Shown in pieces: positions 1 to 27,219 of a stretch of 27,432 nucleotides of DNA (position 1 is its first letter; every line of letters starts with the position of its first letter). The notes under the pieces were generated by a model. It made no database searches and had not been told where the DNA came from. It saw only the letters and a program-made list of their open reading frames with translations. Location of the stretch: IMG/VR virus record IMGVR_UViG_3300017989_000061; one strand, written 5' to 3'. The stretch comes from an uncultured virus (IMG/VR IMGVR_UViG_3300017989_000061). Lineage: Duplodnaviria; Heunggongvirae; Uroviricota; Caudoviricetes. The position numbers were made by a program, and so were the translations under genes.

Positions 1-672
1 CGTGGACAGGGAGTCTGGATTTGCCAGATTGTTGATTGCCCGGATTATTCCGGTGTGACCCGTGCCTTCACCAGAGAAGAAATTCATCTTGCTTTGTCTT
101 CAGAAGAATTCTGGTCAGGCAGAGCTGATGACCACGAAAGTTTCTATGCTTCTCTGAAGCCGGGACAGATTGTTCACTACAACAACGGATTCAACAACTA
201 TGTGCGTTGTGAAGCCTTCATTGAAGATGGTGAAACAAAGTTGAAGCCGATTGCTCTTGTCGGTCAGTGGAGAGAGTACGATCTCCCACGACGAAACGTC
301 GATGGTTCAATCTCTTATAACTACTACCCGGCAATGGTACTCGGTGAAAAGTTTGGCAGCGATAACGTCAAAACCTCATTCACTCCGAACTACTCAAACA
401 TTTATGAGGCAAAGCCAAGGGTGGGGGATATCGACCCGACAGACCTTGAACCTATCGATCTGTCAGTTCCTCCGATGACCGATGAACAGAAGTCTATCGC
501 TGCTAAATGGCAGAAGGTAGCAGCGGTCAGTCGGGCAATTGAAGAAGGGCAGCGGGCAAGAGGAAAGGAAAACAATCCTCAGAAGATTCTCGATGCCATC
601 GAAACTCTGATGAAAAAGAACCCCAAAGAATATCTCAGGCTGTTCACCACACTATCGGGGACACCTGTATAA
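1..672 (+). CDS. Hypothetical phage protein, 5'-partial
   Basis: Frame is open from position 1 (RGQGVWICQ...) through the listed 55..672 ORF. Confidence 0.8.
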   Translation, partial: RGQGVWICQIVDCPDYSGVTRAFTREEIHLALSSEEFWSGRADDHESFYASLKPGQIVHYNNGFNNYVRCEAFIEDGETKLKPIALVGQWREYDLPRRNVDGSISYNYYPAMVLGEKFGSDNVKTSFTPNYSNIYEAKPRVGDIDPTDLEPIDLSVPPMTDEQKSIAAKWQKVAAVSRAIEEGQRARGKENNPQKILDAIETLMKKNPKEYLRLFTTLSGTPV

Positions 673-677
673 AAGCC

Positions 678-959
678 ATGACAACTTCATCTGAACAAAA
701 TATGACTCCCGAACAACGTGCTATGCCAAAGCACGTTCAACAGGAAGCATACAAAAGAATCCCAATGACCTGCGATCTGGTCAGACAGATTCTGGACGAA
801 GCAATAGTCACATTGATGGACGATCTGGATATTGATCCTGCTGATGTGGCAACCGTTGATGTGGCTATGTCTCATGCTTTTCAACGTATTCGGGATGAAG
901 TTACACAACCCTTCCGAACAGAACAAATGAGGTTGTTATGTCCAAAGGATACACCGTAA
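678..959 (+). CDS. Hypothetical protein (93 aa)
   Basis: ATG ORF directly after the upstream stop, co-oriented. Confidence 0.7.
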   Translation: MTTSSEQNMTPEQRAMPKHVQQEAYKRIPMTCDLVRQILDEAIVTLMDDLDIDPADVATVDVAMSHAFQRIRDEVTQPFRTEQMRLLCPKDTP

Positions 960-1123
960 TCAGTGAAGCCGACGATCATATCATCGTTGGAATGAGTTTC
1001 GCACACTTCAACAAAAATTGCGAACCCTCAATTACCTACAACGGCAGATAATACAAGTGGGGACCACTGGAAATCTGCCCAATCAATTTCTGTTCCGCAC
1101 GTCGCTACAATCTGGAAAGCTGA
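938..1123 (+). pseudogene. Small ORF interrupted by an in-frame TAA (1049-1051)
   Basis: GAGG then ATG at 938; MSKGYTVISE..ITYNGR*YKWGPLEICP..NLES* fills the gap to the next gene. Confidence 0.4.
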
Positions 1124-1128
1124 AATCA

Positions 1129-1332
1129 ATGACATACAGAGAACTTCAGGCTGAAATGGCTAACTGGACCGATGAGCAACTGGATTCCGATGTGACCATT
1201 GAGATGCTCTGTGATCACGGCGACAATGAATGTTTTGCCGCTGAGTTGAGAATCGCTGGTGAAGATCATCCATCACTGGATGAAGATCACCCTGTACTGC
1301 TGGAATCGTCTTTTGACGACACCCAGTCATAA
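1129..1332 (+). CDS. Hypothetical acidic protein (MTYRELQ...)
   Basis: ATG 1129 within ORF 1018..1332, purine-rich leader. Confidence 0.7.
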   Translation: MTYRELQAEMANWTDEQLDSDVTIEMLCDHGDNECFAAELRIAGEDHPSLDEDHPVLLESSFDDTQS

Positions 1333-1421
1333 AGAAACAAGTCCCCTGATTGGATGCAGGTAGCCAACCATAGTGCTGGTAAACGCCGTATGCACGTGGA
1401 GGAGTGCCAGAACAATCAGGG
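1331..1421 (+). other. Intergenic structured element (multi-stem hairpin)
   Basis: CCCCTGATTG/CAATCAGGGG 10-bp stem, outer AAAGAA/TTCTTT, inner hairpins ACCA/TGGT and GCAC/GTGC. Confidence 0.5.
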
Positions 1422-1448
1422 GCAATTCTTTCAACAAAGGGGAAAATA

Positions 1449-2111
1449 ATGACGAACATCCGAATCACAATCAGTCCTGATCTCGATGCAGAACATCTGA
1501 ACCCTGCGAGTTATGACTGTGAATGGAAACCAATTAGCTTTTCTTCAAAGTTCATCAACTATGAAGATCCCGAAAACTACCTCAAGTTTGAAAACGGCAA
1601 GATCGTTCCTGCCACCGAAGAACTGAAGGAAAAGTTTGAGCAGGGATTCGCTTTCCTGCTCGACTATTACGAACACGGTTTGGGAATGTGGTCAATTCAT
1701 GGAACTGGTCCTAGTAGCACATGGGATAATACCAGTTGTGCTGGCATTTTGCTCTGGAACCACAAAGCTGAGGACATGGGTGCCAAGACACCCGATGAAC
1801 GAGAAAAGGACGCAAAACGCTTCCTCGAACGATACACTGACTGGTGCAATGGCACTTGTCATTACTTTGAAATCCACAAAATTACAGACTGTGAACATTG
1901 TGGACAAGAAATCAAAGAAACAATCGAAACAGACTACTCAAGGCAAGGTCACGTCGGAGACGACATCGAAGACGCTATCCGACAGGACTTGTTTGGAGTG
2001 ATTAGCGATTATCCTGATGCTCATATCACCTTTGCTGGTGATGGAAGTCATTACGGAAGTTTCGTCAAAATTCCGACACCTGATGAAATCGCAGAAGCAG
2101 AAGCACTGTGA
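1449..2111 (+). CDS. Hypothetical phage protein with CxxC
   Basis: AAGGGG RBS and ATG 1449 in ORF 1404..2111; YEHG..WD..G and CEHC motifs. Confidence 0.8.
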   Translation: MTNIRITISPDLDAEHLNPASYDCEWKPISFSSKFINYEDPENYLKFENGKIVPATEELKEKFEQGFAFLLDYYEHGLGMWSIHGTGPSSTWDNTSCAGILLWNHKAEDMGAKTPDEREKDAKRFLERYTDWCNGTCHYFEIHKITDCEHCGQEIKETIETDYSRQGHVGDDIEDAIRQDLFGVISDYPDAHITFAGDGSHYGSFVKIPTPDEIAEAEAL

Positions 2112-2250
2112 AACGAATGACTGTGAAAAATGCGGACGATTTTCAGGACACTGTGTCGCTCGTATCAATGAACGGTTTTACGATTCAGAACATCCTTATG
2201 GCGTAGACGACTGGAAAACTATGCCAATCTTCAAAGAAGAGGACACCTGA
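2083..2250 (+). CDS. Small Cys-rich hypothetical protein
   Basis: Fills the gap between neighbours; CEKC motif; start uncertain. Confidence 0.5.
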   Translation: MKSQKQKHCETNDCEKCGRFSGHCVARINERFYDSEHPYGVDDWKTMPIFKEEDT

Positions 2251-2252
2251 TA

Positions 2253-2786
2253 ATGGGACTCACGATCAAAAACAATGCTGAAATCAAACAGCAGGAAGCG
2301 TTCAAAATCTTTGCCAAAGATAAAGATGGCAATTTGGTATCTGCCTTCTTTATGTGTCTTAAAAAAGGACTGCACTACCCATCAAACGAACGAATCCGTG
2401 TCGATGATGAAGAAACAGGATTCTTCGCATTCAAAGATTTTGATCGTGCCGTTTCACTGGCAATCCAAGGCAAACGATCATGGACGACAGGCTATGGACA
2501 AAATAGACACTGGGATTTTTCAACAAGTCGGCTGATCGTTCTCCCAGTAACAATGTACGAAGTTTATGCTCAAGGGGATTTTCACGTCCCATCAGGTGAT
2601 GTTCAGGTGATGGATGGGTACTATCCTGCCTTTGAATCCAAGGAGATTGTAGTACACGACACCCCGGAAAACGTCATGGCATTTCACGATGCAGTGATTG
2701 CCAGAGTCATCAAAAATCAAAGATACCACATGACTCCAGTTGAAAAACTGGCATTCGAGACCCGACTACCACAATACGTTGCTTAG
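2253..2786 (+). CDS. Hypothetical protein (177 aa)
   Basis: GAGGA RBS, long co-oriented ORF. Confidence 0.8.
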   Translation: MGLTIKNNAEIKQQEAFKIFAKDKDGNLVSAFFMCLKKGLHYPSNERIRVDDEETGFFAFKDFDRAVSLAIQGKRSWTTGYGQNRHWDFSTSRLIVLPVTMYEVYAQGDFHVPSGDVQVMDGYYPAFESKEIVVHDTPENVMAFHDAVIARVIKNQRYHMTPVEKLAFETRLPQYVA

Positions 2787-2794
2787 GAATAACC

Positions 2795-3109
2795 ATGAAA
2801 GACATGCTCGCCAAAGCACAGGAAAAGGCAGAACAGACAATCTTCAATGACCTGAATATCACCATAAAGGTGAAACTCAGAAAGTCAGAACTAGGGAACT
2901 ATCACGAAGCAATTCTGCCAGAACAACCCATCAGCACTTCAACCATCGGCGTCATTGCGCTTATGATGGAAACTCTTGTTGTTGGGGTGAGAGTGTATCT
3001 CTTTGAGGAAAGAAAACTCTCCGTCGAATACCACTTCATGTATTCACATCCAAGCGGAGGACGCAACGGTTGTGAAGCTAAAAGGTCGTTTGACCTTCCA
3101 TTGTTTTAG
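2795..3109 (+). CDS. Hypothetical protein (104 aa)
   Basis: AGGA RBS, ATG. Confidence 0.75.
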   Translation: MKDMLAKAQEKAEQTIFNDLNITIKVKLRKSELGNYHEAILPEQPISTSTIGVIALMMETLVVGVRVYLFEERKLSVEYHFMYSHPSGGRNGCEAKRSFDLPLF

Positions 3110-3118
3110 GACACCTTC

Positions 3119-3610
3119 ATGGCATTCAACGAAACAAACCTCGGACCCTTCCGAATCATTGAAGACACAAAAAACAACAATGTTGTTATGGCTCCGGGCT
3201 ATGAAAACGCCACTATCTACGATAGTCGGGAAGACCTCTGGATTCAGCATGGACTGAAAGAACTGAATCTGGACAGACTCGAAATGGTAAGGTCACTCAG
3301 CCTGTCTTTGACACCCGGTGAACAGGAAGCAGTTTCAGAGTTTCTGAGACAACAGCCGAAAAAACGAAAAGATGACAAGCTCAAAGAATTCAGAAAACCA
3401 ATTGAAGATGCTTTTGAAGTCATCGCTGAAATGCGTGATGACAACAATGTTTATGTTGTTCTGACTTTCAAAGAAACATCTCATTCCAGTTACGACTGTT
3501 ATCGGTACTTCTACCATTCCGACAAAGAGGAATGGGAAAACTACATTCACTACCAAAACGTCAATGCAGATGAAGCAATGGCGTGGATGGCAGCAGTTAA
3601 GCATAAGTAG
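3119..3610 (+). CDS. Hypothetical protein (163 aa)
   Basis: AGGACACC leader then ATG. Confidence 0.8.
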   Translation: MAFNETNLGPFRIIEDTKNNNVVMAPGYENATIYDSREDLWIQHGLKELNLDRLEMVRSLSLSLTPGEQEAVSEFLRQQPKKRKDDKLKEFRKPIEDAFEVIAEMRDDNNVYVVLTFKETSHSSYDCYRYFYHSDKEEWENYIHYQNVNADEAMAWMAAVKHK

Positions 3611-3618
3611 GGGAAACC

Positions 3619-4008
3619 ATGACCGCTCACGAAACACTCACCAAAGTTGCTGCACGTCTTTCTGGACACCATAAAGACGATTTGTCAACAACTGAACGAC
3701 AAATCGCCGCTCTCCTGTTTGACTGTGAGTATATCATCGTAGACGATCAGGGTAATATCCTCGACCGTCTTGATGCAGCAGTCAGTTGCCCTGACTACGT
3801 GACTACTACCAACGGTGAACGATTCACTGTTGATCACCACCGAGATATGATTCAATCTGTTCACAAGCGGTTCGGTCGAAACATCGATGCCACTCATGAG
3901 GCATGGAATCGACTGATGGAATCTCGCTTCGACAGAGAACAAGTCGAAACTTTGTTAGGAGAAGAATACAATGCCCAAGACAACCCTTTTCGTCGTCATC
4001 GAAGTTGA
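3619..4008 (+). CDS. Hypothetical protein (129 aa)
   Basis: AGGGG RBS, ATG. Confidence 0.75.
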   Translation: MTAHETLTKVAARLSGHHKDDLSTTERQIAALLFDCEYIIVDDQGNILDRLDAAVSCPDYVTTTNGERFTVDHHRDMIQSVHKRFGRNIDATHEAWNRLMESRFDREQVETLLGEEYNAQDNPFRRHRS

Positions 4009-4147
4009 AATTGAACACGGCAAAGATACCACCCCCGATGAAATCATCGACGATTGTGAATATGATTTCCCTTCTCCCGAAGGACATAACGGGGAAATCA
4101 CTCACACAGAAATGATCGGATACACCGAAGAACGACCAATCGTTTGA
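3971..4147 (+). CDS. Small acidic hypothetical protein (58 aa, not in ORF track)
   Basis: AGGAG RBS, ATG 3971, MPKTTLFVVIEVEIEH...ERPIV*, fills gap. Confidence 0.65.
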   Translation: MPKTTLFVVIEVEIEHGKDTTPDEIIDDCEYDFPSPEGHNGEITHTEMIGYTEERPIV

Positions 4148-4158
4148 GGACACCCAAC

Positions 4159-4461
4159 ATGAAACCAACAGCACGAGAAATTCTCGCCAAGAAAATGGCG
4201 GATCGTATTGGTCACGGCATGGAAGAAAAATGTTACACCCATGCTGATGTGGCAATTGAATTTGTAAGCGACTATTCGTTTACAAGTACGCTGTCACTCA
4301 TGGAAGCGTACAGGAAAGCTGAAAACAACGAAGAATGTGCTAAGATCCTCAGACTCTATTGTACAGACTTCATGCAGTATTGCCGGGAATATGATCCCGG
4401 TAGACTTCGTGTAATCAGGGAATGCAAGGAACTCTACAATGAAAAACAAAGTGACAATTGA
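4159..4461 (+). CDS. Hypothetical protein
   Basis: GAGGACACCCAAC-ATG. Confidence 0.75.
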   Translation: MKPTAREILAKKMADRIGHGMEEKCYTHADVAIEFVSDYSFTSTLSLMEAYRKAENNEECAKILRLYCTDFMQYCREYDPGRLRVIRECKELYNEKQSDN

Positions 4462-4708
4462 TCTGCCCGCTGCGTTTCAAGTTGAAGACTACCACGAAAT
4501 TCCCGTTGTGCTGGATATGCTCAAAGGAATGACAGGAGACACCTCACTCAAGACCAACGAAGTAAAGTCTGCTCCTGAAAAAGAAAATCCACACGGACAG
4601 ACTTTTTATTGGGGAATTCTCTACAAAGGCAGATACCCCAGTAAAGCAACCATCAATGCCTGTCTGGAAAAGGCTGGTTGTGATATGAACCCGGACTACG
4701 ACGATTGA
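4439..4708 (+). CDS. Hypothetical protein (89 aa)
   Basis: AAGGA RBS, overlaps end of upstream gene. Confidence 0.7.
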   Translation: MKNKVTIDLPAAFQVEDYHEIPVVLDMLKGMTGDTSLKTNEVKSAPEKENPHGQTFYWGILYKGRYPSKATINACLEKAGCDMNPDYDD

Positions 4709-4718
4709 GGAGATTTCT

Positions 4719-4871
4719 GTGACTCTTTTTTGTTTAATCCACAAATACGACGACAAAACCGATCTTCATCTTTTCAAGTCAGAAAAGACTGTTGAACCCG
4801 GAGAAGTTGCCGCACAACTCAATGTGGATTTTCTTCTTTGTGAAATGTTGATGATGTTGACTGCCCTGTAA
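4719..4871 (+). CDS. Small hypothetical protein (50 aa)
   Basis: GAGGAG RBS, GTG start, fills gap. Confidence 0.5.
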   Translation: MTLFCLIHKYDDKTDLHLFKSEKTVEPGEVAAQLNVDFLLCEMLMMLTAL

Positions 4872-4883
4872 TTGAGGACACCC

Positions 4884-5126
4884 ATGCCAATTCTAACAGA
4901 ACCTGAAGACCTGAATTGGTTACAGGAAACTCACAACGTCTCAACCAATGGTTACAAAGTTGCCGTACTGCACGGCAATGAAGACTACCCAACCAAAGTT
5001 GAACTGTTCACCAGAGATCACTTTAGGTGCAAACCCACCATCTATGAACCTGATGAAGACGGGACACTAAGACTTGTTAAGTTCGGGACCGGGCAACCAC
5101 CGCCGACAAAAGAGGACACCCAATGA
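4884..5126 (+). CDS. Hypothetical protein
   Basis: GAGGACACCC-ATG. Confidence 0.75.
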   Translation: MPILTEPEDLNWLQETHNVSTNGYKVAVLHGNEDYPTKVELFTRDHFRCKPTIYEPDEDGTLRLVKFGTGQPPPTKEDTQ

Positions 5127-5491
5127 GCTACCAACGTGTTGTGCCAAGAGACCTGTTCAACGAATCAAAGTTGCTCAAATGCCTTGGACAACTCGTTCTA
5201 CTCATTCACAATGGATGTGACAAAGATGGAACAGCCACTCCTGCTAATCTCAAATATGAGCACGTAGGCAACCAATTTAACATCATCCAAGATCCGTCCG
5301 ATGGCAGCATCGAATCTCCAAACATGCGGTTCTACAATAACGGTTCATTTCTATGCTTTGGACACCCAATGAACTGCAATGAGCCTTACCCGCTGCTCCT
5401 GAAAACTGTCGATGACGAAATCGAAGTCTTCAATGATGACGGGACACTAACCGATCAATTCAGGGAATTTTGCGATGAAATCGAAGATTGA
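5123..5491 (+). CDS. Phage hypothetical protein (RVVPRDLFNESKLLKCLGQL N-terminus)
   Basis: ATGA overlap, GAGGACACCC leader; N-terminus resembles a recurrent phage hypothetical family (from recall). Confidence 0.8.
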   Translation: MSYQRVVPRDLFNESKLLKCLGQLVLLIHNGCDKDGTATPANLKYEHVGNQFNIIQDPSDGSIESPNMRFYNNGSFLCFGHPMNCNEPYPLLLKTVDDEIEVFNDDGTLTDQFREFCDEIED

Positions 5492-5714
5492 ATATATCCC
5501 AGACAGTGCCGAACGAATCAATCGACCTGTCAAACGACGTGGCGGAATCCTGAATCTCGCTCCCGGACAATCAGAAGATGGTTACGGAAGCAAAATCACT
5601 ACCGATACAATGGTCCGACTCGATAACCGACTTTATCGTGTCTACGCTACCTGCTACTCCAACGTAGCAAGTCACTGGATCATCAAAGGTGGACAGAAAC
5701 TTCATCTGAGGTAA
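5475..5714 (+). CDS. Phage hypothetical protein (GYGxKI..RVY..CYSN)
   Basis: Overlapping ORF; motif typical of small phage proteins. Confidence 0.75.
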   Translation: MKSKIEYIPDSAERINRPVKRRGGILNLAPGQSEDGYGSKITTDTMVRLDNRLYRVYATCYSNVASHWIIKGGQKLHLR

Positions 5715-5933
5715 ACAATTACTCAACGAAATCAGAATCAAACCAAATTGCGGGGCGAGATTCCAAGAAACTGAATTGGGTTATCATCCTGATCTCCCAA
5801 AATTACGAGAAACAGTTTTGCTCGCTCCCAAAACTGCCGAACAACTTGAAAACGCTCTCGCAGCTTGCCAGCGGTCACTCGCAAAAGCTGACACCCGGTA
5901 ACAAAACATCCAATCACTCACCGGGAGAACAAA

Positions 5934-6374
5934 ATGAGTTGTTACCACAATATCACCAAAGTTGAATTTGAAAACACCGTCGTTAAACAATGGGGATTCC
6001 ACCCAATGTCAATCGATGGAACAACTGAACTTGTCTATGGCAAAACTACCACAATTCACGGACATACTGTCTCCTGCCGCATCTACTCAGGCATTAACCC
6101 CGATGGCAATAGTCGGGAAGTTGGCAAAGATGCTATCCGCATCCAGTTGTTCGTGAAACAAAATGGACACCCACAGAAACTCAACAAAACACGTCGATGC
6201 CTCAGAGTTAAAGGATGGAAAAATAATCTCACAAACGCTCTGAGAGAAGAAAAAGCAAAGGTCACTCAATGTAAATGTGGTGCCCTCCTCGCTCACCGTA
6301 AAAAAGGTGACTTCTACGGTTGTGTGACTTACCACGATACAGGATGCAAGGGAACACCCGCAAAATACACATAA
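5934..6374 (+). CDS. Protein with C-terminal topoisomerase-type C4 zinc ribbon
   Basis: CKCGALLAHRKKGDFYGCVTYHDTGCKGT matches the zf-C4_Topoisom pattern; GGGAG RBS. Confidence 0.75.
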   Translation: MSCYHNITKVEFENTVVKQWGFHPMSIDGTTELVYGKTTTIHGHTVSCRIYSGINPDGNSREVGKDAIRIQLFVKQNGHPQKLNKTRRCLRVKGWKNNLTNALREEKAKVTQCKCGALLAHRKKGDFYGCVTYHDTGCKGTPAKYT

Positions 6375-6384
6375 GGAACAAACC

Positions 6385-6639
6385 ATGTCCGCAATCAGCC
6401 TGAATATCGACACAGATATCATCGGTGATGACTTTGAAAAAGGACGAAAACTGCTCACCAACGTCCTCAAAGCAATTCCTGACACCCACGATATGACCAG
6501 ACTCGAAGCGGGAACATACGTCAAAGAATTTACCTTCTACGTTGACCCCGAAACCGCCGAAGTTAAATGTGCCAGAAATGATAGCCTCTATGGACGTATC
6601 AATCGTCCAACCGTCACTCTTACCATTGATGAACTCTAA
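6385..6639 (+). CDS. Hypothetical protein (84 aa)
   Basis: AAGGA RBS, ATG. Confidence 0.7.
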   Translation: MSAISLNIDTDIIGDDFEKGRKLLTNVLKAIPDTHDMTRLEAGTYVKEFTFYVDPETAEVKCARNDSLYGRINRPTVTLTIDEL

Positions 6640-6648
6640 GGAAAGAAT

Positions 6649-7083
6649 ATGACCATCTTTGTCTCCGACAAAAACGAAGCACGAAATGAAAAACTGTTCG
6701 ATACTCTCGTGTCCTGCATGGGCAACTGTGAAACTATCGAAGGGGAAGTGCTAAGAGCGATCAATCGTCTCGTTTATCGTTACTACAACGATGGAGATTA
6801 TTGGTGGGAAGGCTATGGCTGCGAAACTGCCGGTCCCGCTGCCGCTTTCCTCAAAAGAATCAAAAATCGCACCGATCTTTGTCTAAACAAAGAAATCAAC
6901 GCAAGCGATCAACGACGGGGTGAAGCCTACGAAAAACAAATCCTCGCCATTCATGAAAAGATTCTCGACTGGATCGAAAGCAAAAATGGTGAATACACCC
7001 TCAACATTGATGATCTCGATATGGACGAAACAGATCCCATCTATGAAAACAATGGATACTATGACGATGGCATCGACTTCTGA
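6649..7083 (+). CDS. Phage hypothetical protein (GEVLRAINRLVYRYYNDGD)
   Basis: AAGGA RBS; recurrent phage motif. Confidence 0.8.
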   Translation: MTIFVSDKNEARNEKLFDTLVSCMGNCETIEGEVLRAINRLVYRYYNDGDYWWEGYGCETAGPAAAFLKRIKNRTDLCLNKEINASDQRRGEAYEKQILAIHEKILDWIESKNGEYTLNIDDLDMDETDPIYENNGYYDDGIDF

Positions 7084-7136
7084 GACACCCTCAGAGGCTC
7101 TGTAACGAATCGTTACTCTAATATGGGATAATCCTC

Positions 7137-12287: not shown

Positions 12288-12290
12288 CAC

Positions 12291-18706: not shown

Positions 18707-18756
18707 ACCCCTCTGCAATTCTGCATGGGTGGTTGGCTTAAAACAGGAAATGTCTG

Positions 18757-20041: not shown

Positions 20042-20079
20042 CGAGTTGTTCAAACAACCTGTTCACTTGGGAGAGTGTT

Positions 20080-20643
20080 ATGATGACTATCGCAGTCAAT
20101 GAGTTTACCGTTACACGACAGAAACGCTGGGGTGAAGAACACCCGACTGTCGAAATCACTCAGGGTGGCATTGATTACACCGGCCCTGATGCTCTGGTCA
20201 AAAAATATGTTGGTGAATTTGAGACATTCACCAACATGACCGAAGCAGTTGAAACAGCAATTTCCATTGCCAAGGCATGGCAGGCTGATTCTGACGAGGA
20301 AATCCACATTGGTTGTGGGTTTACACATGGCACAAGTATGCCATTGGACTGTGAACCAGCCAATGAGGACACCTACAACACTCTTATCGCTGGGGCTAAG
20401 GAGTTCGACGAGAACTTACCCAAGTGTGCTCAGTGTGGAGATTTTCTCGGCAAGAACAAATACGGCAACGCTGATACCGGCGAGTATGATTGTTGCTCAG
20501 AGTATTGTGCCGAACAACATCACTTCACACCATCAGTTGAAATCTGTCTGAATTGTCATGAGGCATTTGAGGACACCGACGAAGACTGGCATCGAGAGTG
20601 TTACTGTTCTGAATTATGTCAGAATGAGTCTGATGAAAGTTAA
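20080..20643 (+). CDS. Hypothetical protein with two C-terminal CxxC..CSxxC metal-binding repeats
   Basis: CAQC..CCSEYC and CLNC..YCSELC; GGGAGAG RBS. Confidence 0.8.
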   Translation: MMTIAVNEFTVTRQKRWGEEHPTVEITQGGIDYTGPDALVKKYVGEFETFTNMTEAVETAISIAKAWQADSDEEIHIGCGFTHGTSMPLDCEPANEDTYNTLIAGAKEFDENLPKCAQCGDFLGKNKYGNADTGEYDCCSEYCAEQHHFTPSVEICLNCHEAFEDTDEDWHRECYCSELCQNESDES

Positions 20644-20845
20644 CCAATTTTTGATGCAATTTGAGTTCTGCTCGATGGCCGAAAGTCGTCGAGCAGTTTC
20701 TCATAAAGCTGTCAAAGTGAATGGAACTCCATTGTCTGCCGATCAGTTGTTAGAGGACGCCACATCAGTATTCAAGGTTGGCGACACCCTGACAATAGGC
20801 AAGAGAGTGACAACAACAATCACCAAAGAACACTTGGGAGAGTGA
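20633..20845 (+). CDS. Standalone S4-like RNA-binding domain protein
   Basis: SMAESRRAVSHKAVKVNG...VGDTLTIGKR resembles the S4 consensus (S.SEARRLI..GAV.VNG..GD.L.VGKR). Confidence 0.65.
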   Translation: MKVNQFLMQFEFCSMAESRRAVSHKAVKVNGTPLSADQLLEDATSVFKVGDTLTIGKRVTTTITKEHLGE

Positions 20846-20847
20846 AG

Positions 20848-21207
20848 ATGGCTAACCTTACATTCAAGGTCCACATGCTGGCTTTTGAGGATGTGGAAAA
20901 GATTCGTCCGGTTGATATCCCGGAAAGTGAAGTCTACGCCTGTACTACGGACGGCAAGAAAGACGTGTTTGCCCTGCTGGAACGCATTTTCCACTACGGG
21001 CAGAACATGTTTCAGTCAAAGCCGTTTTGCTCTGTCAGTATGGGTGACGTTGCTCATGTTGAGGGCAAATACTACCTGTGCATGGCCAATGGATGGGAAG
21101 AAATCTCCGAAGATGCTCTGGAGAAATACCGCAAGGTAGATCGTGATAACAGATCAATGCTTTGCTATGGAATTGATGAGTTCAAGAGCAAAATCGCAGA
21201 AACCTGA
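20848..21207 (+). CDS. YodL-like domain protein
   Basis: LERIF..Q...SVSMGDV..EGKYYLC..GW resembles the YodL SLSVxDVV..YY..GF motif. Confidence 0.65.
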   Translation: MANLTFKVHMLAFEDVEKIRPVDIPESEVYACTTDGKKDVFALLERIFHYGQNMFQSKPFCSVSMGDVAHVEGKYYLCMANGWEEISEDALEKYRKVDRDNRSMLCYGIDEFKSKIAET

Positions 21208-21239
21208 CAGAAATTTTGCTGAATTTTTCCTGAACCTGC

Positions 21240-21268
21240 TTTACAGCTAACTCCTTACTCCGTAGGAT
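21240..21268 (+). promoter_or_regulatory. Putative sigma70-type promoter
   Basis: TTTACA-17 bp-TAGGAT in an intergenic gap. Confidence 0.45.
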
Positions 21269-21361
21269 AAGGATGTGACAACACTCCCAACGGTCAGGGA
21301 GTTAGCTGACACCCATCAAGCAGACAGTGACAAATACAAAAGTTGTTTCGGGAGAGACAAA

Positions 21362-22063
21362 ATGAACGACATGCTTGAATTCATCGGCGAAGGTTATGGA
21401 CAGGCCGCACTTTGTGCCTTTCGCAAGCAGCGAATGGAAAAATATGTTTCCACGATTATTGAGCGTGTGGGCATTCCCACTATCGTGGTCACCATGATTA
21501 ACGACGATCCTGATTTGTACGGTGATCGTCGGTATTACAAGACTTGTGACGTTGCCGCCATGGCAAAGGAATTTGTCTTCAATCTTGATGAGGATTGCCT
21601 GAAGTATCTTCTGATCGATACCCGCATTCCAAATGAAAATGGTTTGGAGCTGTTTCAAACTCTGTTTGAGTACAACTGTGGTGTTGCCATCGTTCAACGA
21701 GTGGACACCCCGGAAACCCACGAAGCAAGGCAACAGGCTGAGAAACGACAGAAGCTGGAAGGCATTGCCAAAGAAGTGGCTGCTCGACACGGTGTAACTG
21801 TTGACAGTCTGGAGTTCATTGCCGCTGTGGAATCAGACATTGAGAACATTCGTCAGGATGCTGAGGATCGACAGTACGGAATGCGGGAAGATGGTCTTTG
21901 CATTGGATGGGGTGCGACACCCGAACAATGGCAAGACGAATACAACGCTGTTGCAACTCACGCTAGTTCTCAGACGGGAACACTGAGTGACGTGTTGGAA
22001 CGGCTGGCAACCGAATGCCCGCTGCTGTGGGCCAAATATCAGGAGAGTAAGTGTGACACCTGA
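21362..22063 (+). CDS. Hypothetical protein
   Basis: GGGAGAG RBS before ATG 21362; ORF track start is 21275. Confidence 0.8.
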   Translation: MNDMLEFIGEGYGQAALCAFRKQRMEKYVSTIIERVGIPTIVVTMINDDPDLYGDRRYYKTCDVAAMAKEFVFNLDEDCLKYLLIDTRIPNENGLELFQTLFEYNCGVAIVQRVDTPETHEARQQAEKRQKLEGIAKEVAARHGVTVDSLEFIAAVESDIENIRQDAEDRQYGMREDGLCIGWGATPEQWQDEYNAVATHASSQTGTLSDVLERLATECPLLWAKYQESKCDT

Positions 22064-22322
22064 GTACAACGAAGTCATCGACCGATCAGTGAGTAATTTG
22101 ATCGCTGATTGGCACAACAAAAACTATGTTGCTGTGATTCAGAATCTGTCCCGCCGACATCCGGCAGTCACAGCGACATTCATTGTTCAAGGGACGCTGG
22201 ATGGTCACCTGACACGAGGAGACTGCAATACTATCACGAATATGCTGGATGAGGATCATCGTGAAATTCGTGACAATCAAGGAATCGAGGCTACCCATCG
22301 GCCTTGGACTCTTACTTCCTGA
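22053..22322 (+). CDS. Hypothetical protein
   Basis: AGGAGAG RBS, GTG start. Confidence 0.65.
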   Translation: MTPEYNEVIDRSVSNLIADWHNKNYVAVIQNLSRRHPAVTATFIVQGTLDGHLTRGDCNTITNMLDEDHREIRDNQGIEATHRPWTLTS

Positions 22323-22407
22323 TCGCTGGGAGTAAAAGTGGACACCCTATGATGGGACAGTGGCGAACAATCGCCAAAACAAAAGTTTTCTTTTTGGGAG
22401 AGTGACT

Positions 22408-23433
22408 ATGTCACATGAGATTGAAGCAGTAAGACTGTCCGATGGTCGATTGGCTCACGAAGCACTCTATGCGAATTCACCCGCATGGCATGGCCTTGGT
22501 GAAGTCTGGCGACCGGGTGAAGGTCTGGCACCCTGTTCACAGGAAATTGAGGAAATTCTTCCTTCAATTTTCTTCAAGGTGGAAAAACGTCCTGTCTGTG
22601 ACACTGACGGCAACGCCGATGACGGTTGGTATCGTCTGGTCAGAACAGACACCGGCAAACTCCTCCACGTAGTGGGTGACAAGTACGAACCACTCCAGAA
22701 CCGTGAAGGATTCGAGTTTCTCGATTCCCTGCACATGGACGGCGTGATTCGATACGAATCAGTCTTCGTCCTGAATGGCGGAAAGAGCGTTGTTCTGCTC
22801 GCTCGTATGCCGTCCTATGACGAAGTTGTTCCCGGCGATGTGAGTTTTCGCTATGTCATGGCGAAACTTCAGCATGGTGGCGGATCAACAATTCTGACAC
22901 CTACAAGCGTTCGTGCCGTTTGTGCTAACACGGTTCGTGCAGCACTGGAAGGCAACACGAATCAGATTGCCATTCGGCACTCTGGTGACATGAAACTCAA
23001 GCTGGATGCGGCGAAAGACGCCATCAGTCAGTTTGATCGACAGTTCACCCTGTTTCGTGAAAACGCACAGAAACTGTTGGTGGGATACGACAAAGAACGT
23101 GCAGCGGATTACATGGAAGAACTGTATCCGACACCTGTTGAGGAAACGTACTCAACGGAACGAGGATACAACCGAGCAAAGAATGCTCACGACCGAAAGG
23201 TTGGCGAACTTCGCTATATGTTCAAACAGCCCGGACAGCAGATGAAGGGAGTCAAGGGCACTTGGTGGGCACTGTTTAACAGTGTGACTGAGGCTATTGA
23301 CCATGGCAAACGTCGGACTGTTCGTGGTGACAAACGAGCAACGAACGAGAACCGATACAAGTCGGTTATCGAGAATGACGGGGCTGCCTTTAAGGAACGA
23401 GCATTCCAGCTCGCTCTGGAAATGGTGGCATAA
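22408..23433 (+). CDS. DUF932 family phage/plasmid-like protein
   Basis: AWHGLG, VR.DT..VG..Y.PLQN, L.GG, PTSVRAVCANT, IRHSG and GT.WA..N.VTE..DH motifs. Confidence 0.88.
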   Translation: MSHEIEAVRLSDGRLAHEALYANSPAWHGLGEVWRPGEGLAPCSQEIEEILPSIFFKVEKRPVCDTDGNADDGWYRLVRTDTGKLLHVVGDKYEPLQNREGFEFLDSLHMDGVIRYESVFVLNGGKSVVLLARMPSYDEVVPGDVSFRYVMAKLQHGGGSTILTPTSVRAVCANTVRAALEGNTNQIAIRHSGDMKLKLDAAKDAISQFDRQFTLFRENAQKLLVGYDKERAADYMEELYPTPVEETYSTERGYNRAKNAHDRKVGELRYMFKQPGQQMKGVKGTWWALFNSVTEAIDHGKRRTVRGDKRATNENRYKSVIENDGAAFKERAFQLALEMVA

Positions 23434-23434
23434 C

Positions 23435-23500
23435 GAAACTCTCCCCGCCGCCTGCCCTGTTGGACACCCGTCTAACAGGGCAGGACGGTTGAGAGCTTTC
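23435..23500 (+). promoter_or_regulatory. Long hairpin with 18-bp repeat copy 2 and a GACACCC apex; potential anti-RBS switch
   Basis: CCTGCCCTGTTGGAC-ACCC-GTCTAACAGGGCAGG; TCTCCCCG is complementary to downstream CGGGGAGA. Confidence 0.6.
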
Positions 23501-23518
23501 AAACAACGGGGAGAAACA

Positions 23519-23710
23519 ATGGACCACGTAAACATTACTGATTCCGGTCGCAATTGGCGACTGGGCACGAGAAAAATCATCAATCTCAAGACGATGGAAT
23601 CTCGCACAATTGATTGCACACCAGTGCGTGAAGCAACGTACATGCATGAACGAGAATTTGTGCGGAAATGTGCTGAGGCATTCGAGACAGGCAAGTGGCC
23701 TGAAAAGTAG
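23519..23710 (+). CDS. Small hypothetical protein
   Basis: GGGGAG RBS. Confidence 0.65.
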   Translation: MDHVNITDSGRNWRLGTRKIINLKTMESRTIDCTPVREATYMHEREFVRKCAEAFETGKWPEK

Positions 23711-23766
23711 ACACCCAGTAACGGGGTGTAACATCAACAAAACTTCTCTGGGGAGAGAACAATGAA
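23708..23766 (+). repeat. Gene-leader module, copy A
   Basis: TAGACACCCA..AACATCAA..AACTTCTCTGGGGAGAGAACAATGAA shared with 25597-25650. Confidence 0.85.
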
Positions 23767-24334
23767 AACGATTACTCGTTTTGAACTTGTCCGGGATTTG
23801 CTGGCACGAAATTCTTCTGCCTTCCCGGCAACAATCGTTGCTCTGACAAAAGAGCATAACCTGCGTGCAAAAATGGACGGCGTTCCTAATCCGTTCTGGC
23901 AGGCACACAAAGACGGTCGGCTCAAGAAACGGTCGGAAGTCAATGGTTTCCTCAACTGGATTTACGCCAACAGCGTCAACAACCAGCGAATGAGGGAAGA
24001 ACAGCCGTTGACGCCAGACGGTCACATTGAGCACTTCGAGCCACTCCCACGAGCGTGGGGGCATCGTGTAAAGGGGACACCCTTTGTACGTCATACCAAC
24101 AAAGGTGGTGACAAACTGATCTATCTTGAACTCAAGGTAGAACGGTCATTGGAGTGGCGATACGAAATCGACGGGGAACCAGTCGATAAGGCAGAAGTTC
24201 TGCCGTTCGTCGCCAAGAAAAAAGAATCGTCTCGACAGAAAACAGAAAAGGCAATTTATTGTCGTGACTATCTGTTGAGTAATGTTCTGGAAATCAGGTA
24301 CGGCGGGGAAATCTACTCCCTCGCTACTGCGTGA
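23762..24334 (+). CDS. Phage hypothetical protein (190 aa)
   Basis: GGGGAGAG RBS, long ORF. Confidence 0.85.
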   Translation: MKTITRFELVRDLLARNSSAFPATIVALTKEHNLRAKMDGVPNPFWQAHKDGRLKKRSEVNGFLNWIYANSVNNQRMREEQPLTPDGHIEHFEPLPRAWGHRVKGTPFVRHTNKGGDKLIYLELKVERSLEWRYEIDGEPVDKAEVLPFVAKKKESSRQKTEKAIYCRDYLLSNVLEIRYGGEIYSLATA

Positions 24335-24340
24335 CATTTA

Positions 24341-24499
24341 GCCGACCCGGTTAAAGGATGGCACTATAGTTGAGCGAAGGCTTATTTGGCCTTTATCCGG
24401 GTTGGTGTTATTGGACACCCTGTAACGTACTGCACGAGACGGGGCAGTCCAGTAGCCAGTAACGGTGCCCACGGGGTAGGCTGTCGCCGTCTCATTTTT
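24341..24499 (+). other. Two long intergenic stem-loops flanking a GACACCC site
   Basis: GCCGACCCGG.TAAAGG/CCTTTA.CCGGGTTGGT; GAGACGG/CCGTCTC followed by ATTTTT. Confidence 0.55.
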
Positions 24500-24518
24500 G
24501 ACACCTTGGGAGAGATCA

Positions 24519-24833
24519 ATGTCAAACGTCAAACGTGTCGAAATCAAAGGCAAAGCACCCTACAACCTGCACGAAAATGAAACACTCCAGCCAATGCTTG
24601 CGTTCATGGCAGGGCCAATGAGTGGACTAAAAATTGAGTGGAAAGGATTCGCCGATTCTGTTCCTGCTCCTCCTCCAAACAGCAATGGTTGTATTGTCTG
24701 CTACAACTTTGAACTGACTGGCGAAGAAGCCGTTAGTTACAAATGGCTCGACCTGTTTGTTGACACCCTGAATGGAATGACTGGCGGGGAAGTCACTACC
24801 AACAAAGTGAGGGACATTGAGAACGATGGATAA
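24519..24833 (+). CDS. Hypothetical protein
   Basis: GGGAGAG RBS. Confidence 0.75.
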   Translation: MSNVKRVEIKGKAPYNLHENETLQPMLAFMAGPMSGLKIEWKGFADSVPAPPPNSNGCIVCYNFELTGEEAVSYKWLDLFVDTLNGMTGGEVTTNKVRDIENDG

Positions 24834-25170
24834 CGCTGAACGAATCGCAAACGCTCGGAAACGTCTGGAACGACTGTGTGATCTGGGAACCACGATCTAC
24901 ACAATGCGAATTGACTACGGACGACGACACCCGGAAAAGAAATATTTCGCTGTCATGGTCATGGATGGAAACACCCTGACCAACATCAGCGGACACGTCG
25001 CCCGACTGCTCGGTCGCAAATGGTCAAACGACAATGGGTCTAGTTGGGCAAACTCCAGTGGAGTTCTGCACCGTAATGCCCGAGATTTGGTGGAACAGTT
25101 GGCAAATGAATTGCACAACGCCTACACCGTGAAAGAAATCGACAGAGCGTTTTATCATGTCGAAGTCTGA
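24826..25170 (+). CDS. Hypothetical protein
   Basis: Overlapping ORF. Confidence 0.7.
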   Translation: MDNAERIANARKRLERLCDLGTTIYTMRIDYGRRHPEKKYFAVMVMDGNTLTNISGHVARLLGRKWSNDNGSSWANSSGVLHRNARDLVEQLANELHNAYTVKEIDRAFYHVEV

Positions 25171-25420
25171 CACCCGGAAAGAAGCCAATCAGCGTCGGAA
25201 AGTCACAAAAGCATTTTCCGACCTGATTCAGGCTGAAATTGATTCGATTATTCCTGAAGAATCCATGTCAACGTGGCTGGATAATATCGGGATCATAAAA
25301 GGATCAGAAACAGACGACAAAGGAAACTTTGTCCTGTTTGTCGAAAAAGAAAATGGCCGAATGTTTCGGCTGGTTATGACACCCATCAAATGGGAAAAAA
25401 CTCTGGGGAGAAAACAATGA
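25157..25420 (+). CDS. Hypothetical protein (87 aa)
   Basis: Overlapping ORF. Confidence 0.65.
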   Translation: MSKSDTRKEANQRRKVTKAFSDLIQAEIDSIIPEESMSTWLDNIGIIKGSETDDKGNFVLFVEKENGRMFRLVMTPIKWEKTLGRKQ

Positions 25421-25599
25421 GTTACTGTTCATCGCTGAAAACATGGCAGGTTGAGAACGTCCTCGAAAAAGAGGCTACTGCTGATCTCGGTGCTAACGGG
25501 AAAGACCTGAGCCTGTACTATGAGGCACGGGAAGAACTCGCCAAACGTGGTGTTGATGCTGATACTGTCCTACGGGAACGTGGTATCGCCAAACCTTAG
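25417..25599 (+). CDS. Small hypothetical protein
   Basis: GGGGAG RBS, ATGA overlap. Confidence 0.7.
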   Translation: MSYCSSLKTWQVENVLEKEATADLGANGKDLSLYYEAREELAKRGVDADTVLRERGIAKP

Positions 25600-25650
25600 A
25601 CACCCACTAACAAAACATCAAAACAACTTCTCTGGGGAGAGAACAATGAA
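25597..25650 (+). repeat. Gene-leader module, copy B
   Basis: 26 bp identical to 23741-23766 plus shared upstream blocks. Confidence 0.85.
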
Positions 25651-25972
25651 GTTCAGTAATCCACGTACTGAGGCAACAATCGAAGATTGGCCTCATGGTC
25701 GCAAACGTGTTACGGCGAAATTCTTCGTCGAAACCAACAAACGTGGCTCTCGTGTCGGTCGCACTACAACCGGCAAACCAAAGTTTACTACCTACCATCA
25801 GAATATGATTCTGGTGGACGGTGATGACGGCAGAATCTACGCTGTCGGTCTGACTGAGTACAATCAGGTGGTTGTCTGGGAAGGAACTCTCAAGACAACC
25901 GAGTATTTCTATGAGAATAGCGAAGAATACGCTGCACTCCTCCCATTGCTGACACCCAAGGAGTCATCATGA
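25646..25972 (+). CDS. Hypothetical protein
   Basis: GGGGAGAG RBS. Confidence 0.8.
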   Translation: MKFSNPRTEATIEDWPHGRKRVTAKFFVETNKRGSRVGRTTTGKPKFTTYHQNMILVDGDDGRIYAVGLTEYNQVVVWEGTLKTTEYFYENSEEYAALLPLLTPKESS

Positions 25973-26199
25973 CATTTCTGGTAGTCAACAATGAGTTTAA
26001 CCGGGTGAACTATCCCAAACTCATTGGGCAAGTGCTGCACAGCCCACCGGGCTATGCCCACGTCAAACCTGTTGACACCCAAGAAACAAGTGTCAGACAG
26101 GTCACAACGAACAATGCACTGATTTGGGGAGAGAAAAATGAACCTGAAAAAGATCTTGATGGAGTTGGGAAATCACTTGGTCATGGATTGTGGATTTGA
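25969..26199 (+). CDS. Small hypothetical protein
   Basis: AAGGAG RBS; 3' end overlaps the next gene. Confidence 0.5.
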   Translation: MTFLVVNNEFNRVNYPKLIGQVLHSPPGYAHVKPVDTQETSVRQVTTNNALIWGEKNEPEKDLDGVGKSLGHGLWI

Positions 26200-26533
26200 T
26201 CCTCCAGTCCTGCCGATTGTCAACTTCACCAACTGGCTCAATGATGATGATAACGCACGTGGCTTTCTTGCAGGTTACGGTTGTTATTGGCCAGTTGTCG
26301 GTGAGTCAGCCGAGACACCCGATGAACAGGTAGCAAAAGACAACTTCAAAGTTCTGATTTATGCTGTCATGCGGTCAACGCCGACCGATGATCGTATGCC
26401 AATCTGGGCATTTGAACGATTCCTCAATGATGAACCTGAAGCCCGATTCTGGCTGATGGAACAGGGAGTTAACTGGCCGATGACACCCGTCATGGGTTTA
26501 GTTCGACAAGCCGACAAACTTCGGGGAAAGTGA
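26138..26533 (+). CDS. Hypothetical protein with an internal repeat
   Basis: GGGGAGAG RBS; F..[WF]LND...AR..L...G..WP occurs twice. Confidence 0.75.
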   Translation: MNLKKILMELGNHLVMDCGFDPPVLPIVNFTNWLNDDDNARGFLAGYGCYWPVVGESAETPDEQVAKDNFKVLIYAVMRSTPTDDRMPIWAFERFLNDEPEARFWLMEQGVNWPMTPVMGLVRQADKLRGK

Positions 26534-26712
26534 TGAAACTCAAACAATGGTCTGAAAAGACCGGCATCAAAGCCACTACTCCCACAACCGAAACTAATGC
26601 AGTTTCGGTTGTGGTGGATCAACAGCACGAAGATCGTCTCAAATTGTGGCACCTGACTGATTATCTTGTGTCCTCACAATGCGGGGTAGTGGTCTGGCTC
26701 ATCCCTCGATGA
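26533..26712 (+). CDS. Small hypothetical protein
   Basis: TGATG coupling. Confidence 0.6.
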   Translation: MKLKQWSEKTGIKATTPTTETNAVSVVVDQQHEDRLKLWHLTDYLVSSQCGVVVWLIPR

Positions 26713-26754
26713 CACCCGTTGACAATTCATCAACAACGCTCATGGGGAGAAACA

Positions 26755-27219
26755 ATGAAAATCAAGTTCAATCTGTTCAAAGACTCAGGAACACTCGTTG
26801 TCCAGAAAGAGGACACCGACCAAAAAGCTACGGCAAGTGGATACACCCGCCATGTTCATGGTTGGGGAGCTGAAATTCACCTGCTGCATCTGATTCGTCA
26901 ACGACTAATGGGCATTGGGCTCAATCTGGCTCGTGTCAAGGTTTCTAGTGATGCACATTTGTTCGGTGACGATCATATGTGCTATCTGAGGACACCCGGT
27001 AAACTGGCAACGAAGTCAAGCCGAACACCACACATGTGGATTGTGGATCGTAATTACGCAATCCGATCAAGTTCGGAAGAGTACAACGATGGGAAAGAAG
27101 TAATCTTCGGAATCGACGGGGATATCTTCAACAAACAACCAAACTGGCTCGAACTACTCAAAGGCATCTGCGACAAAGCCGGTGTTGAGTGTGTTGTCCG
27201 ACACCCAGTAACAGCGTAA
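26755..27219 (+). CDS. Hypothetical protein
   Basis: GGGGAG RBS, ATG 26755. Confidence 0.8.
   Translation: MKIKFNLFKDSGTLVVQKEDTDQKATASGYTRHVHGWGAEIHLLHLIRQRLMGIGLNLARVKVSSDAHLFGDDHMCYLRTPGKLATKSSRTPHMWIVDRNYAIRSSSEEYNDGKEVIFGIDGDIFNKQPNWLELLKGICDKAGVECVVRHPVTA

Follow-up and report, generated by a model that had tools for sequence, protein, structure and literature searches.

Chi and KOPS sites are chromosome-wide and follow replication polarity, and the late promoters of phage T4 (TATAAATA) and the promoters of T7 are short phage-specific promoter cores. The late promoters of the giant phage AR9 are reported to have the consensus AACA-N6-TA/G, which was found at 94 of 118 mapped start sites, and 13 late promoters are placed inside open reading frames (ORFs) (PMC5312081). 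The stoperators of L5 and other cluster A phages are reported as 13-mers, somewhat more than 20 per genome, that occupy short gaps between genes and serve as binding sites of the immunity repressor of these temperate phages (PMC9283540), and promoter-early stem-loop cassettes (PeSLs) are reported to sit in hyperplastic regions of T4-type phages (PMC2839356). For phage G, only software-predicted promoters are reported. Here we analyzed a 27,432-nucleotide stretch (hereafter the window) of an uncultured Caudoviricetes virus, IMG/VR record IMGVR_UViG_3300017989_000061, in which the hexamer GACACC, mostly followed by a pyrimidine (Y), recurs on one strand only about every 300 bp. Based on its distribution and on comparison with related phages, we propose with moderate confidence that GACACC(Y) would be a minimal promoter, the core that stays constant in a phage-specific signal for transcription initiation, arranged as a tandem array that also runs through genes. 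Literature searches on GACACC, on strand-exclusive regular phage hexamers, and on promoter motifs of huge phages or megaphages retrieved no description of such an array; the papers listed for GACACC all appear to concern primers or unrelated matters.

Exact word counting over the whole window detected 87 copies of GACACC on the + strand and none on the − strand, with start coordinates running from 660 to 27200, and the next base was a pyrimidine in 74 of them (C in 53, T in 21). The counts and positions given in the original prediction were thus reproduced. The base preceding the motif was T or G in 67 of the 87 copies. One hundred dinucleotide shuffles of the window yielded 18.0 ± 4.2 copies on both strands together (highest 31), so that chance gives about 9 copies per strand, somewhat more than the 6–7 estimated earlier. 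The 86 gaps averaged 308.6 bp (standard deviation 129, coefficient of variation 0.42, minimum 42, maximum 658). Only two gaps were shorter than 100 bp, compared with 23.8 predicted by an exponential law of equal mean, and the same law predicts 10.2 gaps longer than the observed maximum of 658 bp.

The window is the reverse strand of bases 134501–161932 of a 234,631-bp viral record, rated by CheckV as 44% complete; record coordinates in the window orientation are given below as R, the window being R 72700–100131. The whole record contains 200 copies of GACACC, 195 in the window orientation and 5 in the opposite one; the reversed word, counted as a control, occurred 53 and 43 times on the two strands. 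As many as 179 of the 195 copies fall between R 25 and 106 kb, inside a block of nearly all co-directional genes. A "genome-wide" marking, as initially envisaged, is therefore not what the record holds: 179 of its 200 copies are in one 80-kb block and the word is depleted elsewhere. Along the block the density rises from about 1 to 4.4 copies per kb (from about 5 up to 22 per 5 kb) and then stops abruptly, falling to 0–3 per 5 kb, and the assembled record continues straight through the array edge. Compared with expectations of 17–23 and 14–16, the block contains 179 GACACC and no copy of its complement GGTGTC, respectively, whereas the 128 kb beyond the block contain 9 and 4, with about 19 expected for each. 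Considered relative to gene orientation outside the block, 8 sense copies were found (18.9 expected) and 4 antisense copies (15.3 expected). Because both orientations are purged, this distribution fits a double-stranded DNA signal whose stray copies would be harmful either way. Outside the block, the record yielded no further polar word, and a TGTAC-type word was without enrichment anywhere in it.

The regularity and the enrichment were then assessed over the whole block. The local-variation statistic (Lv) was used for spacing, since it tolerates a drifting rate and the density gradient therefore does not fake regularity; Lv was 0.35 (z = −8), compared with 1.00 ± 0.08 (lowest 0.71) in 10,000 Poisson simulations, confirming together with the gap counts that the spacing is non-random. 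Synonymous-codon shuffling of 153 block genes in 200 rounds left 82 ± 4.5 GACACC (highest 97) against the 179 observed, and 10.4 ± 2.8 GGTGTC (lowest 4) against the 0 observed in the block, so that the array is not a codon or protein artefact. Copies were further classed by the codons staying open on both sides and were called deep where at least 40 codons were open on each side. The 29 deep copies of the window use all three reading frames (frame 0, 14; frame 2, 11; frame 1, 4), and 58 of the 179 block copies are deep, indicating that the word is indeed written through unrelated genes. None of the 18 one-mismatch variants of GACACC was comparably enriched or strand-biased over the block; the most abundant one occurred 42 times (24 expected), with 35 copies on the opposite strand. 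The claim of a directional signal selected for itself is upheld by these data.

The nearest GenBank record was the uncultured 595-kb phage LR756511.1 (hereafter W01), whose TerL is 53% identical to that of this phage. W01 has no GACACC excess (50 and 70 copies on the two strands). Its word is instead AGCTGTAC, present in 55 copies on the + strand in 1–19.2 kb, where the GC content is 0.49–0.52; from 20 kb to about 290 kb the complement of AGCTGTAC occurs, with counts per 10 kb decaying as 12, 7, 9, 3, 6, and onward. At the protein level, R 1–85 kb of this phage is collinear with W01 from 195 down to 21 kb, whereas R 86–106 kb matches W01 1–19 kb in inverted order, and the word stays on the coding strand in both phages. 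Within the window, positions 1..13300 (the distal part of a "long arm") are collinear with W01 from about 27 down to 21 kb on the − strand, and the following "dense arm" corresponds to the inverted W01 1–19 kb. Given that the densest 20 kb is inverted relative to W01 and that the motif follows the genes, the suggestion that its polarity is tied to a genome end, to ejection, or to replication was not supported.

Two further relatives, the IMG/VR records G002 and G001, were found through a conserved protein of the block. G002 (159.5 kb) carries GGTTGTAC in 96 forward copies and 1 reverse copy, with counts of 1, 3, 3, 7, 6, 6, 10, 18, 26, and 15 per 10 kb, the array ending at 95.2 kb and a stray copy lying at 103.7 kb. 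G001 (340.9 kb) carries AATTGTACC in 65 reverse and 2 forward copies, with counts of 5, 4, 6, 9, 7, 21, and 11 and a stop at 275.9 kb. The GC content of the dense arm is 0.527 in G002 and 0.533 in G001, compared with 0.45–0.46 upstream. In all four phages checked, the dense arm was 4–8 GC points above the adjoining long arm (0.48 at window 13301–27432, 0.527 and 0.533 in L175 and L176, and 0.49–0.52 in L025). The dense arms end against AT-rich DNA, which in G002 contains repeated GGATTTTTCAAAA-like words. Lv was 0.21–0.30 in all five arrays, and the largest gap was 636–658 bp in this phage versus 1093–1552 bp in the relatives with long words. The relatives' words are 8–17 nt long, carry TAC-N-W-A, and share no primase-like core. 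Thus, five phages use four different words, and the same architecture is present in the four relatives.

In these relatives the word is linked to gene starts. Dense-arm copies lie at ORF edges in 34 of 44 cases in G002, 14 of 35 in G001, and 32 of 55 in W01, with only 3, 6, and 5 deep copies, respectively. In the G002 and G001 dense arms the core is mostly 30–45 nt before an ATG, and in the W01 dense arm an ORF-opening ATG lies 10–50 nt downstream of 79% of the 55 copies, compared with 27% of random points. The core-to-ATG distance in L058, L055, and W01 shows a sharp peak at 10–11 nt (6/14, 6/15, 7/55, and 9/71 copies), and starts within 14 nt of the core seldom have a Shine-Dalgarno site (1/7, 1/6, 4/11, and 2/17), whereas 29 of 35 longer-leader starts of the W01 dense arm have one. 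Two distance classes are thereby distinguished in the relatives, one of 10–11 nt mostly without a ribosome site and the other of about 25–45 nt mostly with one. The former class puts the TA of TGTAC 12–13 nt before the ATG, which matches the published signature of leaderless genes, in which the −10 box is reported about 12 bp before the start codon (PMC3160421). Since the equivalent word in three relatives is a gene-upstream element with promoter-like geometry, which the original prediction did not anticipate, a transcription signal becomes the leading reading of the arrays.

The same word was recovered in one distant relative, the metagenome contig L091 (42.9 kb, of which 12.4 kb was examined), whose DUF932 homologue is 47% identical and whose nucleotide likeness to the window is limited to two short blastn matches of 68–75%. 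L091 carries 36 forward and no reverse copies of GACACC with a mean gap of 346 bp (coefficient of variation 0.44). A purine precedes the core and nothing is conserved after it, so that conservation does not extend beyond RGACACC; the copies stand at variable places in about 29 small genes, 10 of the 36 deep in ORFs. In the aligned DUF932 genes, copies lie at nt 288, 536, and 770 in this phage and at nt 148, 237, and 555 in L091, with a single coinciding pair on a common Asp-Thr, and the W01 homologue is without copies. These mostly different positions indicate that word and density are kept in L091 while positions turn over. A scan of 79 DUF932-anchored loci revealed no further GACACC array. 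A near-identity search of 25 kb against GenBank phages gave 0 matches, and IMG/VR scans with the single proteins DUF932 and TerL returned the same phage at 99.9–100% identity and one unrelated motif-free locus. L097, a contig of an unrelated phage retrieved by way of DUF932, has at 5905–7840 a different kind of one-strand repeat, namely 2 kb of tandem NNACC pentamer repeats in which CCCTACC occurs 26 times forward and 0 times reverse behind AT-rich "aattgcaaaa" boxes.

Placement relative to genes is looser in this phage. The 179 block copies comprise 44 at ORF edges, 77 intermediate ones, and the 58 deep ones, the last being somewhat rarer than random points would be (32% versus 40–49%) yet far above the chance number. 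Edge copies have in addition T at −5, G at −3, C at +1 (89%), A at +6 (80%), and A at +13, whereas deep copies keep only the core and Y, with weak T at +4, A at +5/+6, and A at +13. The letters of the motif also serve the surrounding genes: TGACACC, in which the GA supplies part of a stop codon, accounts for 65 of the 179 copies and GGACACC, which yields a GGA ribosome-site core, for 63, and a TAA or TGA starts 3 nt past the motif in 46. Besides the ribosome site, GACACC is the only strongly enriched word upstream of block starts. It occurs within 70 nt of 60 of the 146 block ORF starts that are preceded by a Shine-Dalgarno site (19.6 expected), at 36–49 nt in 32 of these 60 cases and at 1–5 nt in 11. 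Many copies in window 1..13300 lie 1–5 nt before an ATG, where the GA of the motif serves a GGA/GAGG ribosome site or a TGA stop, and the upstream flank TAATTGAG of the copy at 4877 is identical to that in the relative L058.

As listed in Table 1, the dense arm contains compact modules, typically running from the motif through a CA-rich leader (CATCAACAA) to GGGAGAG and the ATG. Terminator-like sites number 30 in the window part, compared with 15.1 expected, and only two strong ones adjoin a motif copy; in W01, several strong terminator-like sites lie 15–30 nt before word copies. Sigma-70 consensus promoters were not enriched, with 15 counted in the window part (17.3 expected) and 23 in W01 (17.3 expected). 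An alternative genetic code was also considered and dropped, the stops after the motif being TAA or TGA and the ORFs short but regular, and a resemblance to the eukaryotic Kozak context was judged a coincidence.

Table 1. Coordinates of the GACACC array and associated features in the window
Feature	Position	Strand	Description
GACACC array	660..27205	+ (coding strand)	87 exact copies; part of a 179-copy array over ~80 kb of the record
Distal part of "long arm"	1..13300	+	35 copies, 2.63 per kb, GC 0.451
"Dense arm"	13301..27432, to about 6 kb past the window	+	52 copies, 3.68 per kb, GC 0.480
Junction copy TAATTGAG-GACACC-C-ATG	4877..4886	+	Motif is the spacer between ribosome site and start codon 4884
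Full module	16136..16229	+	Terminator-like hairpin 16136–16172 and T-run, GACACC 16181–16186, CA-rich leader, GGGAG 16215–16219, ATG 16227
Hairpin module	16867..16920	+	Hairpin and T-run 16867–16885, GACACC 16895–16900, GGGAG 16907–16911, ATG 16918
Leader module	25599..25648	+	GACACC, leader cactaacaaaacatcaaaacaac, GGGAG 25635–25639, ATG 25646
DUF932-family gene	22360..23433	+	Pfam PF06067, E 5e-38; internal copies 22648, 22896, 23130; flanking copies 22341, 23463
Conserved 144-aa protein	6649..7083	+	Not part of the signal; anchor for finding relatives

The polarity kept through the inversion, the gene-upstream geometry in three relatives, the hairpin-motif-leader modules, and the purging in both orientations together argue for a double-stranded DNA signal linked to transcription, and initiation would be its simplest version. 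We infer that transcription would start at the motif, which would probably be a promoter core recognized by the RNA polymerase of the host acting with a phage-encoded factor. In the model that we favor, a clade of huge phages would possess a long one-direction block of small accessory genes with a lineage-specific word placed before genes, its copies being sparse upstream and occurring about every 300 bp in the terminal dense arm, which is GC-rich and made up of tiny genes. The word may have shrunk to 6–7 bases in this phage and L091, short enough to be accommodated in coding sequence, and extra copies would then fill the long genes and hold the roughly 300-bp spacing. Every copy of such a tandem promoter array would add transcripts for all downstream genes, whereas copies less than ~100 bp apart would interfere with each other, hence the few short gaps. 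Additive copies combined with close-range interference would thus account for both the fill-in of long genes and the scarcity of short gaps. Reverse or out-of-block copies would fire antisense or mistimed RNA and be purged.

The reader could possibly be a divergent sigma-70-family protein of the same gene block, encoded at R 29018–29911. Proteins with sigma-70 region 2 number one in this record, three in W01, one in G001, and none in the G002 fragment, and the syntenic sigma pair of this phage and W01 is 23% identical over the full length (pairwise BLASTP E = 1e-8). A protein search with this phage's sigma gave 0 matches in G001, G002, and W01, being too insensitive, as it misses the W01 homologue. 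No match to PF00623, which marks a multisubunit phage RNA polymerase, was found in this record or in the 595-kb W01, whereas the control was positive in 14 of 14 genomes; the search with PF00940 for a single-subunit RNA polymerase was uninformative, since it matched no control genome either.

Several observations weigh against a promoter. Placement is promoter-like for only about a third of this phage's copies; 58 of the 179 lie deep in ORFs with the bare core and Y only, and L091 conserves nothing beyond RGACACC and has 10 of its 36 copies deep in ORFs. Copies 1–2 nt before an ATG cannot be that gene's promoter, the copy at 23463 sits in a hairpin loop, and one L091 copy stands directly before a terminator-like hairpin. 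GACACC itself lacks the TA of a sigma-70-type −10 element (TA at −12/−11 plus an A/T-rich melting region), and the YRNTAA / A+13 pattern downstream of it is only weakly present in this phage and is missing from L091. Furthermore, the want of any enriched one-mismatch variant would be more typical of enzyme-like recognition than of promoters, and with a sigma gene in G001 but none in the G002 fragment, the link between sigma and motif stays putative. Based on these points, the bare hexamer might conceivably be a spacing-controlled, strand-specific DNA signal, such as the site of a nickase, a modification enzyme, or a tracking protein, rather than a promoter, although we consider this unlikely. 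The array would then consist of one copy per about 300 bp on the coding strand of an early-gene block, placed regardless of gene boundaries, and the hexamer would in this lineage have taken over places formerly held by a promoter word. Were this true, the array would constitute a periodic and polar DNA mark such as has not been described for any phage.

A signal coupled to transcription without initiating it, acting on the non-template strand, in double-stranded DNA, or in nascent RNA, is possible at a similarly low level of confidence. It could serve recurrent pausing or factor reloading (RfaH/ops-like or sigma-dependent), form a stoperator-like roadblock that depends on orientation and shuts the block off, or direct RNA processing or stability. 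Strict co-orientation with genes across the inversion would fit such a signal, as would the in-gene bare-core copies and the spacing kept through positional turnover, and stoperators are likewise reported to be asymmetric, with an orientation that tracks transcription and a function abolished by reversal (PMC9283540). Nevertheless, the antisense depletion, both in the block (0 versus 10.4) and outside it (4 versus 15.3), is unexpected for an RNA-level signal or a one-direction roadblock. Predicted RNA accessibility was 0.474 for the motif and 0.492 for its one-mismatch variants (p = 0.50), which gives no support at the RNA level, and the 10–11-nt distance to ATGs lacking a Shine-Dalgarno site in relatives suggests that the motif fixes the 5′ ends of the RNA. 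A roadblock would moreover have to act through a site of 6–7 bp here, compared with 13 bp in stoperators.

One-strand nick sites are found in T5-like and some Pseudomonas phages, and GACACC as a strand-specific DNA mark, either the site of a T5-type phage nickase or a base modification on one strand, appears improbable but explains part of the data. Nicks could load a tracking activator or relieve the torsional stress of a block that is heavily transcribed. An exact word without tolerated variants suits a nick or modification site, and since the DNA would be broken by nicks placed close together on its two strands, the complete absence of the inverse orientation in the block would follow. The depletion found in the rest of the record and the apparent sufficiency of the bare core agree with this as well. 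The block does contain an HNH endonuclease gene, but this gene is also present in W01, whose word differs, and no DNA methyltransferase was seen among the 103 scanned proteins of at least 200 aa in this partial record. A DNA mark would, furthermore, leave the gene-upstream geometry in the relatives unexplained.

Chi sites on both sides of a DNA end are oriented to face it. A polar signal of the Chi or KOPS kind, read by a helicase-nuclease or translocase that tracks along DNA and densest beside a genome end or terminus at the array edge, would recall the exact skewed oligomer and the density rising to an abrupt edge in this phage and three relatives, and W01 has two arrays facing one another across 19.5 kb, in the orientation that Chi needs when flanking a DNA end. 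We regard this as quite improbable, because the orientation stays with the genes when the dense arm inverts, nothing lies beyond the array edge in this phage, and the record reads through that edge. A wrongly oriented Chi is harmless, which leaves the purging unexplained, and fixed distances of 10–11 and 30–45 nt to start codons have no place in such a model.

It is very improbable that the motif provides lagging-strand priming sites: the T7-type primase site GTGTC is part of the complement GGTGTC, the record encodes a Toprim primase-like protein, and regular spacing would suit Okazaki priming, but both strands of the other roughly 128 kb, which also must replicate, are depleted of the word, GGTGTC as a primase site would imply forks running head-on against all block genes, and the relatives' words have no primase-like core. 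Equally hard to credit is that the phage passively avoids a restriction enzyme of its host, of Type III or Type ISP, that cuts only between inversely oriented sites, for which the single orientation of T7's 36 EcoP15 sites is the reported precedent (PMC3874151) and to which an asymmetric word at 179:0 in the block would conform, since avoidance predicts no enrichment whereas the word is regularly spaced and 8–10 times over expectation, 5 inverse copies persist in the record, and the relatives' 8–17-nt words are gene-linked.

Strain variation was also seen near motif copies. Comparison of contigs from four runs identified, in the two seawater runs X6 and X7, a variant about 3% diverged, with 738 differences, that also differs by cassette-sized indels, and 5–6 of 11 variant joints have a breakpoint no more than 10 nt from a motif copy. 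Breakpoints on or beside motif copies are reminiscent of PeSL-mediated shuffling. The variant has deletions or replacements at window positions 7915–8066, 10969–11339, 12273–12349, 13407–13439, 16459–16673, and 20618–20837, among others. The window itself and the matching genome differ by one substitution at 22001 and by a shift from 27264 onward, presumably an indel. In other samples, contigs of this phage or of a near-identical one break near both borders of the dense arm, L021/L089 starting at R 85231 and a contig of run X6 ending at about R 107 kb; these breaks could reflect strain-variable structure such as the inversion seen against W01.

The record encodes proteins of the huge-phage type, namely a T4-type portal, a large terminase, and a prohead protease, as well as inteins, TnpB genes, and the Toprim primase-like protein. 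The portal protein and an actin-like protein (Pfam "Volactin") have intein/LAGLIDADG insertions at L011:6804–9329 and L012:8676–10802, both outside the window, and the record further encodes two TnpB-like proteins and several homing endonucleases. A tRNA with anticodon CTA, labeled "Pyl" by ARAGORN, lies at record bases 5677–5751 (L009:5677–5751), outside the window; it is of the amber-suppressor type and hints at TAG recoding in part of the phage genes. ARAGORN also placed inside the dense arm a tmRNA whose tag peptide is atypical (L015:14421–14560, − strand, overlapping window 27373–27432 and beyond), which is probably a false call.

If the promoter interpretation is true, a clade of huge marine and sediment phages drives a 60–300-kb accessory-gene block from a private, fast-evolving start signal, with a conserved layout in which the graded density culminates in a dense arm that is rich in GC, consists of tiny genes, and has a signal roughly every 300 bp. 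The GACACC lineage would then show the limit to which such a signal can shrink, with six bases sown in coding sequence, their spacing set, their sites turning over, and stray copies purged elsewhere, and the minimum length of a promoter, the self-spacing of tandem promoters, and the co-evolution of signal and reader would become testable. A strand-exclusive word array is in addition a simple sequence handle to find and orient the early-gene blocks of uncultured huge phages.

Among described systems, PeSLs are alike in that cassettes made of a promoter and a terminator hairpin are interspersed among small, non-essential genes that form blocks in phages whose heads are of the T4 type (PMC2839356), as the hairpin-motif-leader modules are here, and in that recombination between PeSLs is reported to shuffle gene cassettes (PMC2839356), which parallels the cassette-sized indels of the variant strain. 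PeSLs are, however, described as intergenic with sigma-70-like promoters (PMC2839356), whereas the word here is a bare 6–7-nt non-sigma-70 word, one-third of whose copies lie deep in genes and which is strictly polar, density-graded, and purged from the remaining genome. AR9 resembles this phage in having a very short lineage-specific core and many promoters, some in ORFs and co-oriented with genes; its roughly 118 late start sites, as reported, are spread genome-wide, stand before genes, and are read by a phage polymerase (PMC5312081), in contrast to about 195 copies in about 100 kb here, exceeding one per gene in the dense arm, with regular spacing and no phage polymerase found.

The analogy with L5 stoperators drawn in the original prediction holds for the orientation rule, stoperators being reported as asymmetric, scattered over the genome, oriented in a way that correlates with transcription direction, and different in consensus between related phages (PMC9283540), but not for site length, density, or placement: GACACC is 6–7 nt long and recurs every 300 bp also in genes, and the scanned proteins included neither a repressor nor a lysogeny module of the integrase type, the one exception being a resolvase beside a TnpB gene, while antisense purging lies outside stoperator logic. 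Its second analogy, with Chi and KOPS, captures an exact, over-represented, strand-skewed word whose density rises toward a defined point (179 versus 17–23 expected) but fails on distribution, given that the GACACC array keeps to a single block of genes and takes its orientation from them even through the inversion. The T7 EcoP15 sites likewise present an asymmetric hexamer in one orientation only, and they are reported to reflect avoidance without a functional array (PMC3874151), whereas here the word is enriched, regularly spaced, and conserved in a distant relative. Compared with all these systems, what is unusual here is the combination of a 6-base core, in-gene copies, a spacing kept through positional turnover, the purging of stray copies, and a clade-wide graded layout with nearly member-specific words.

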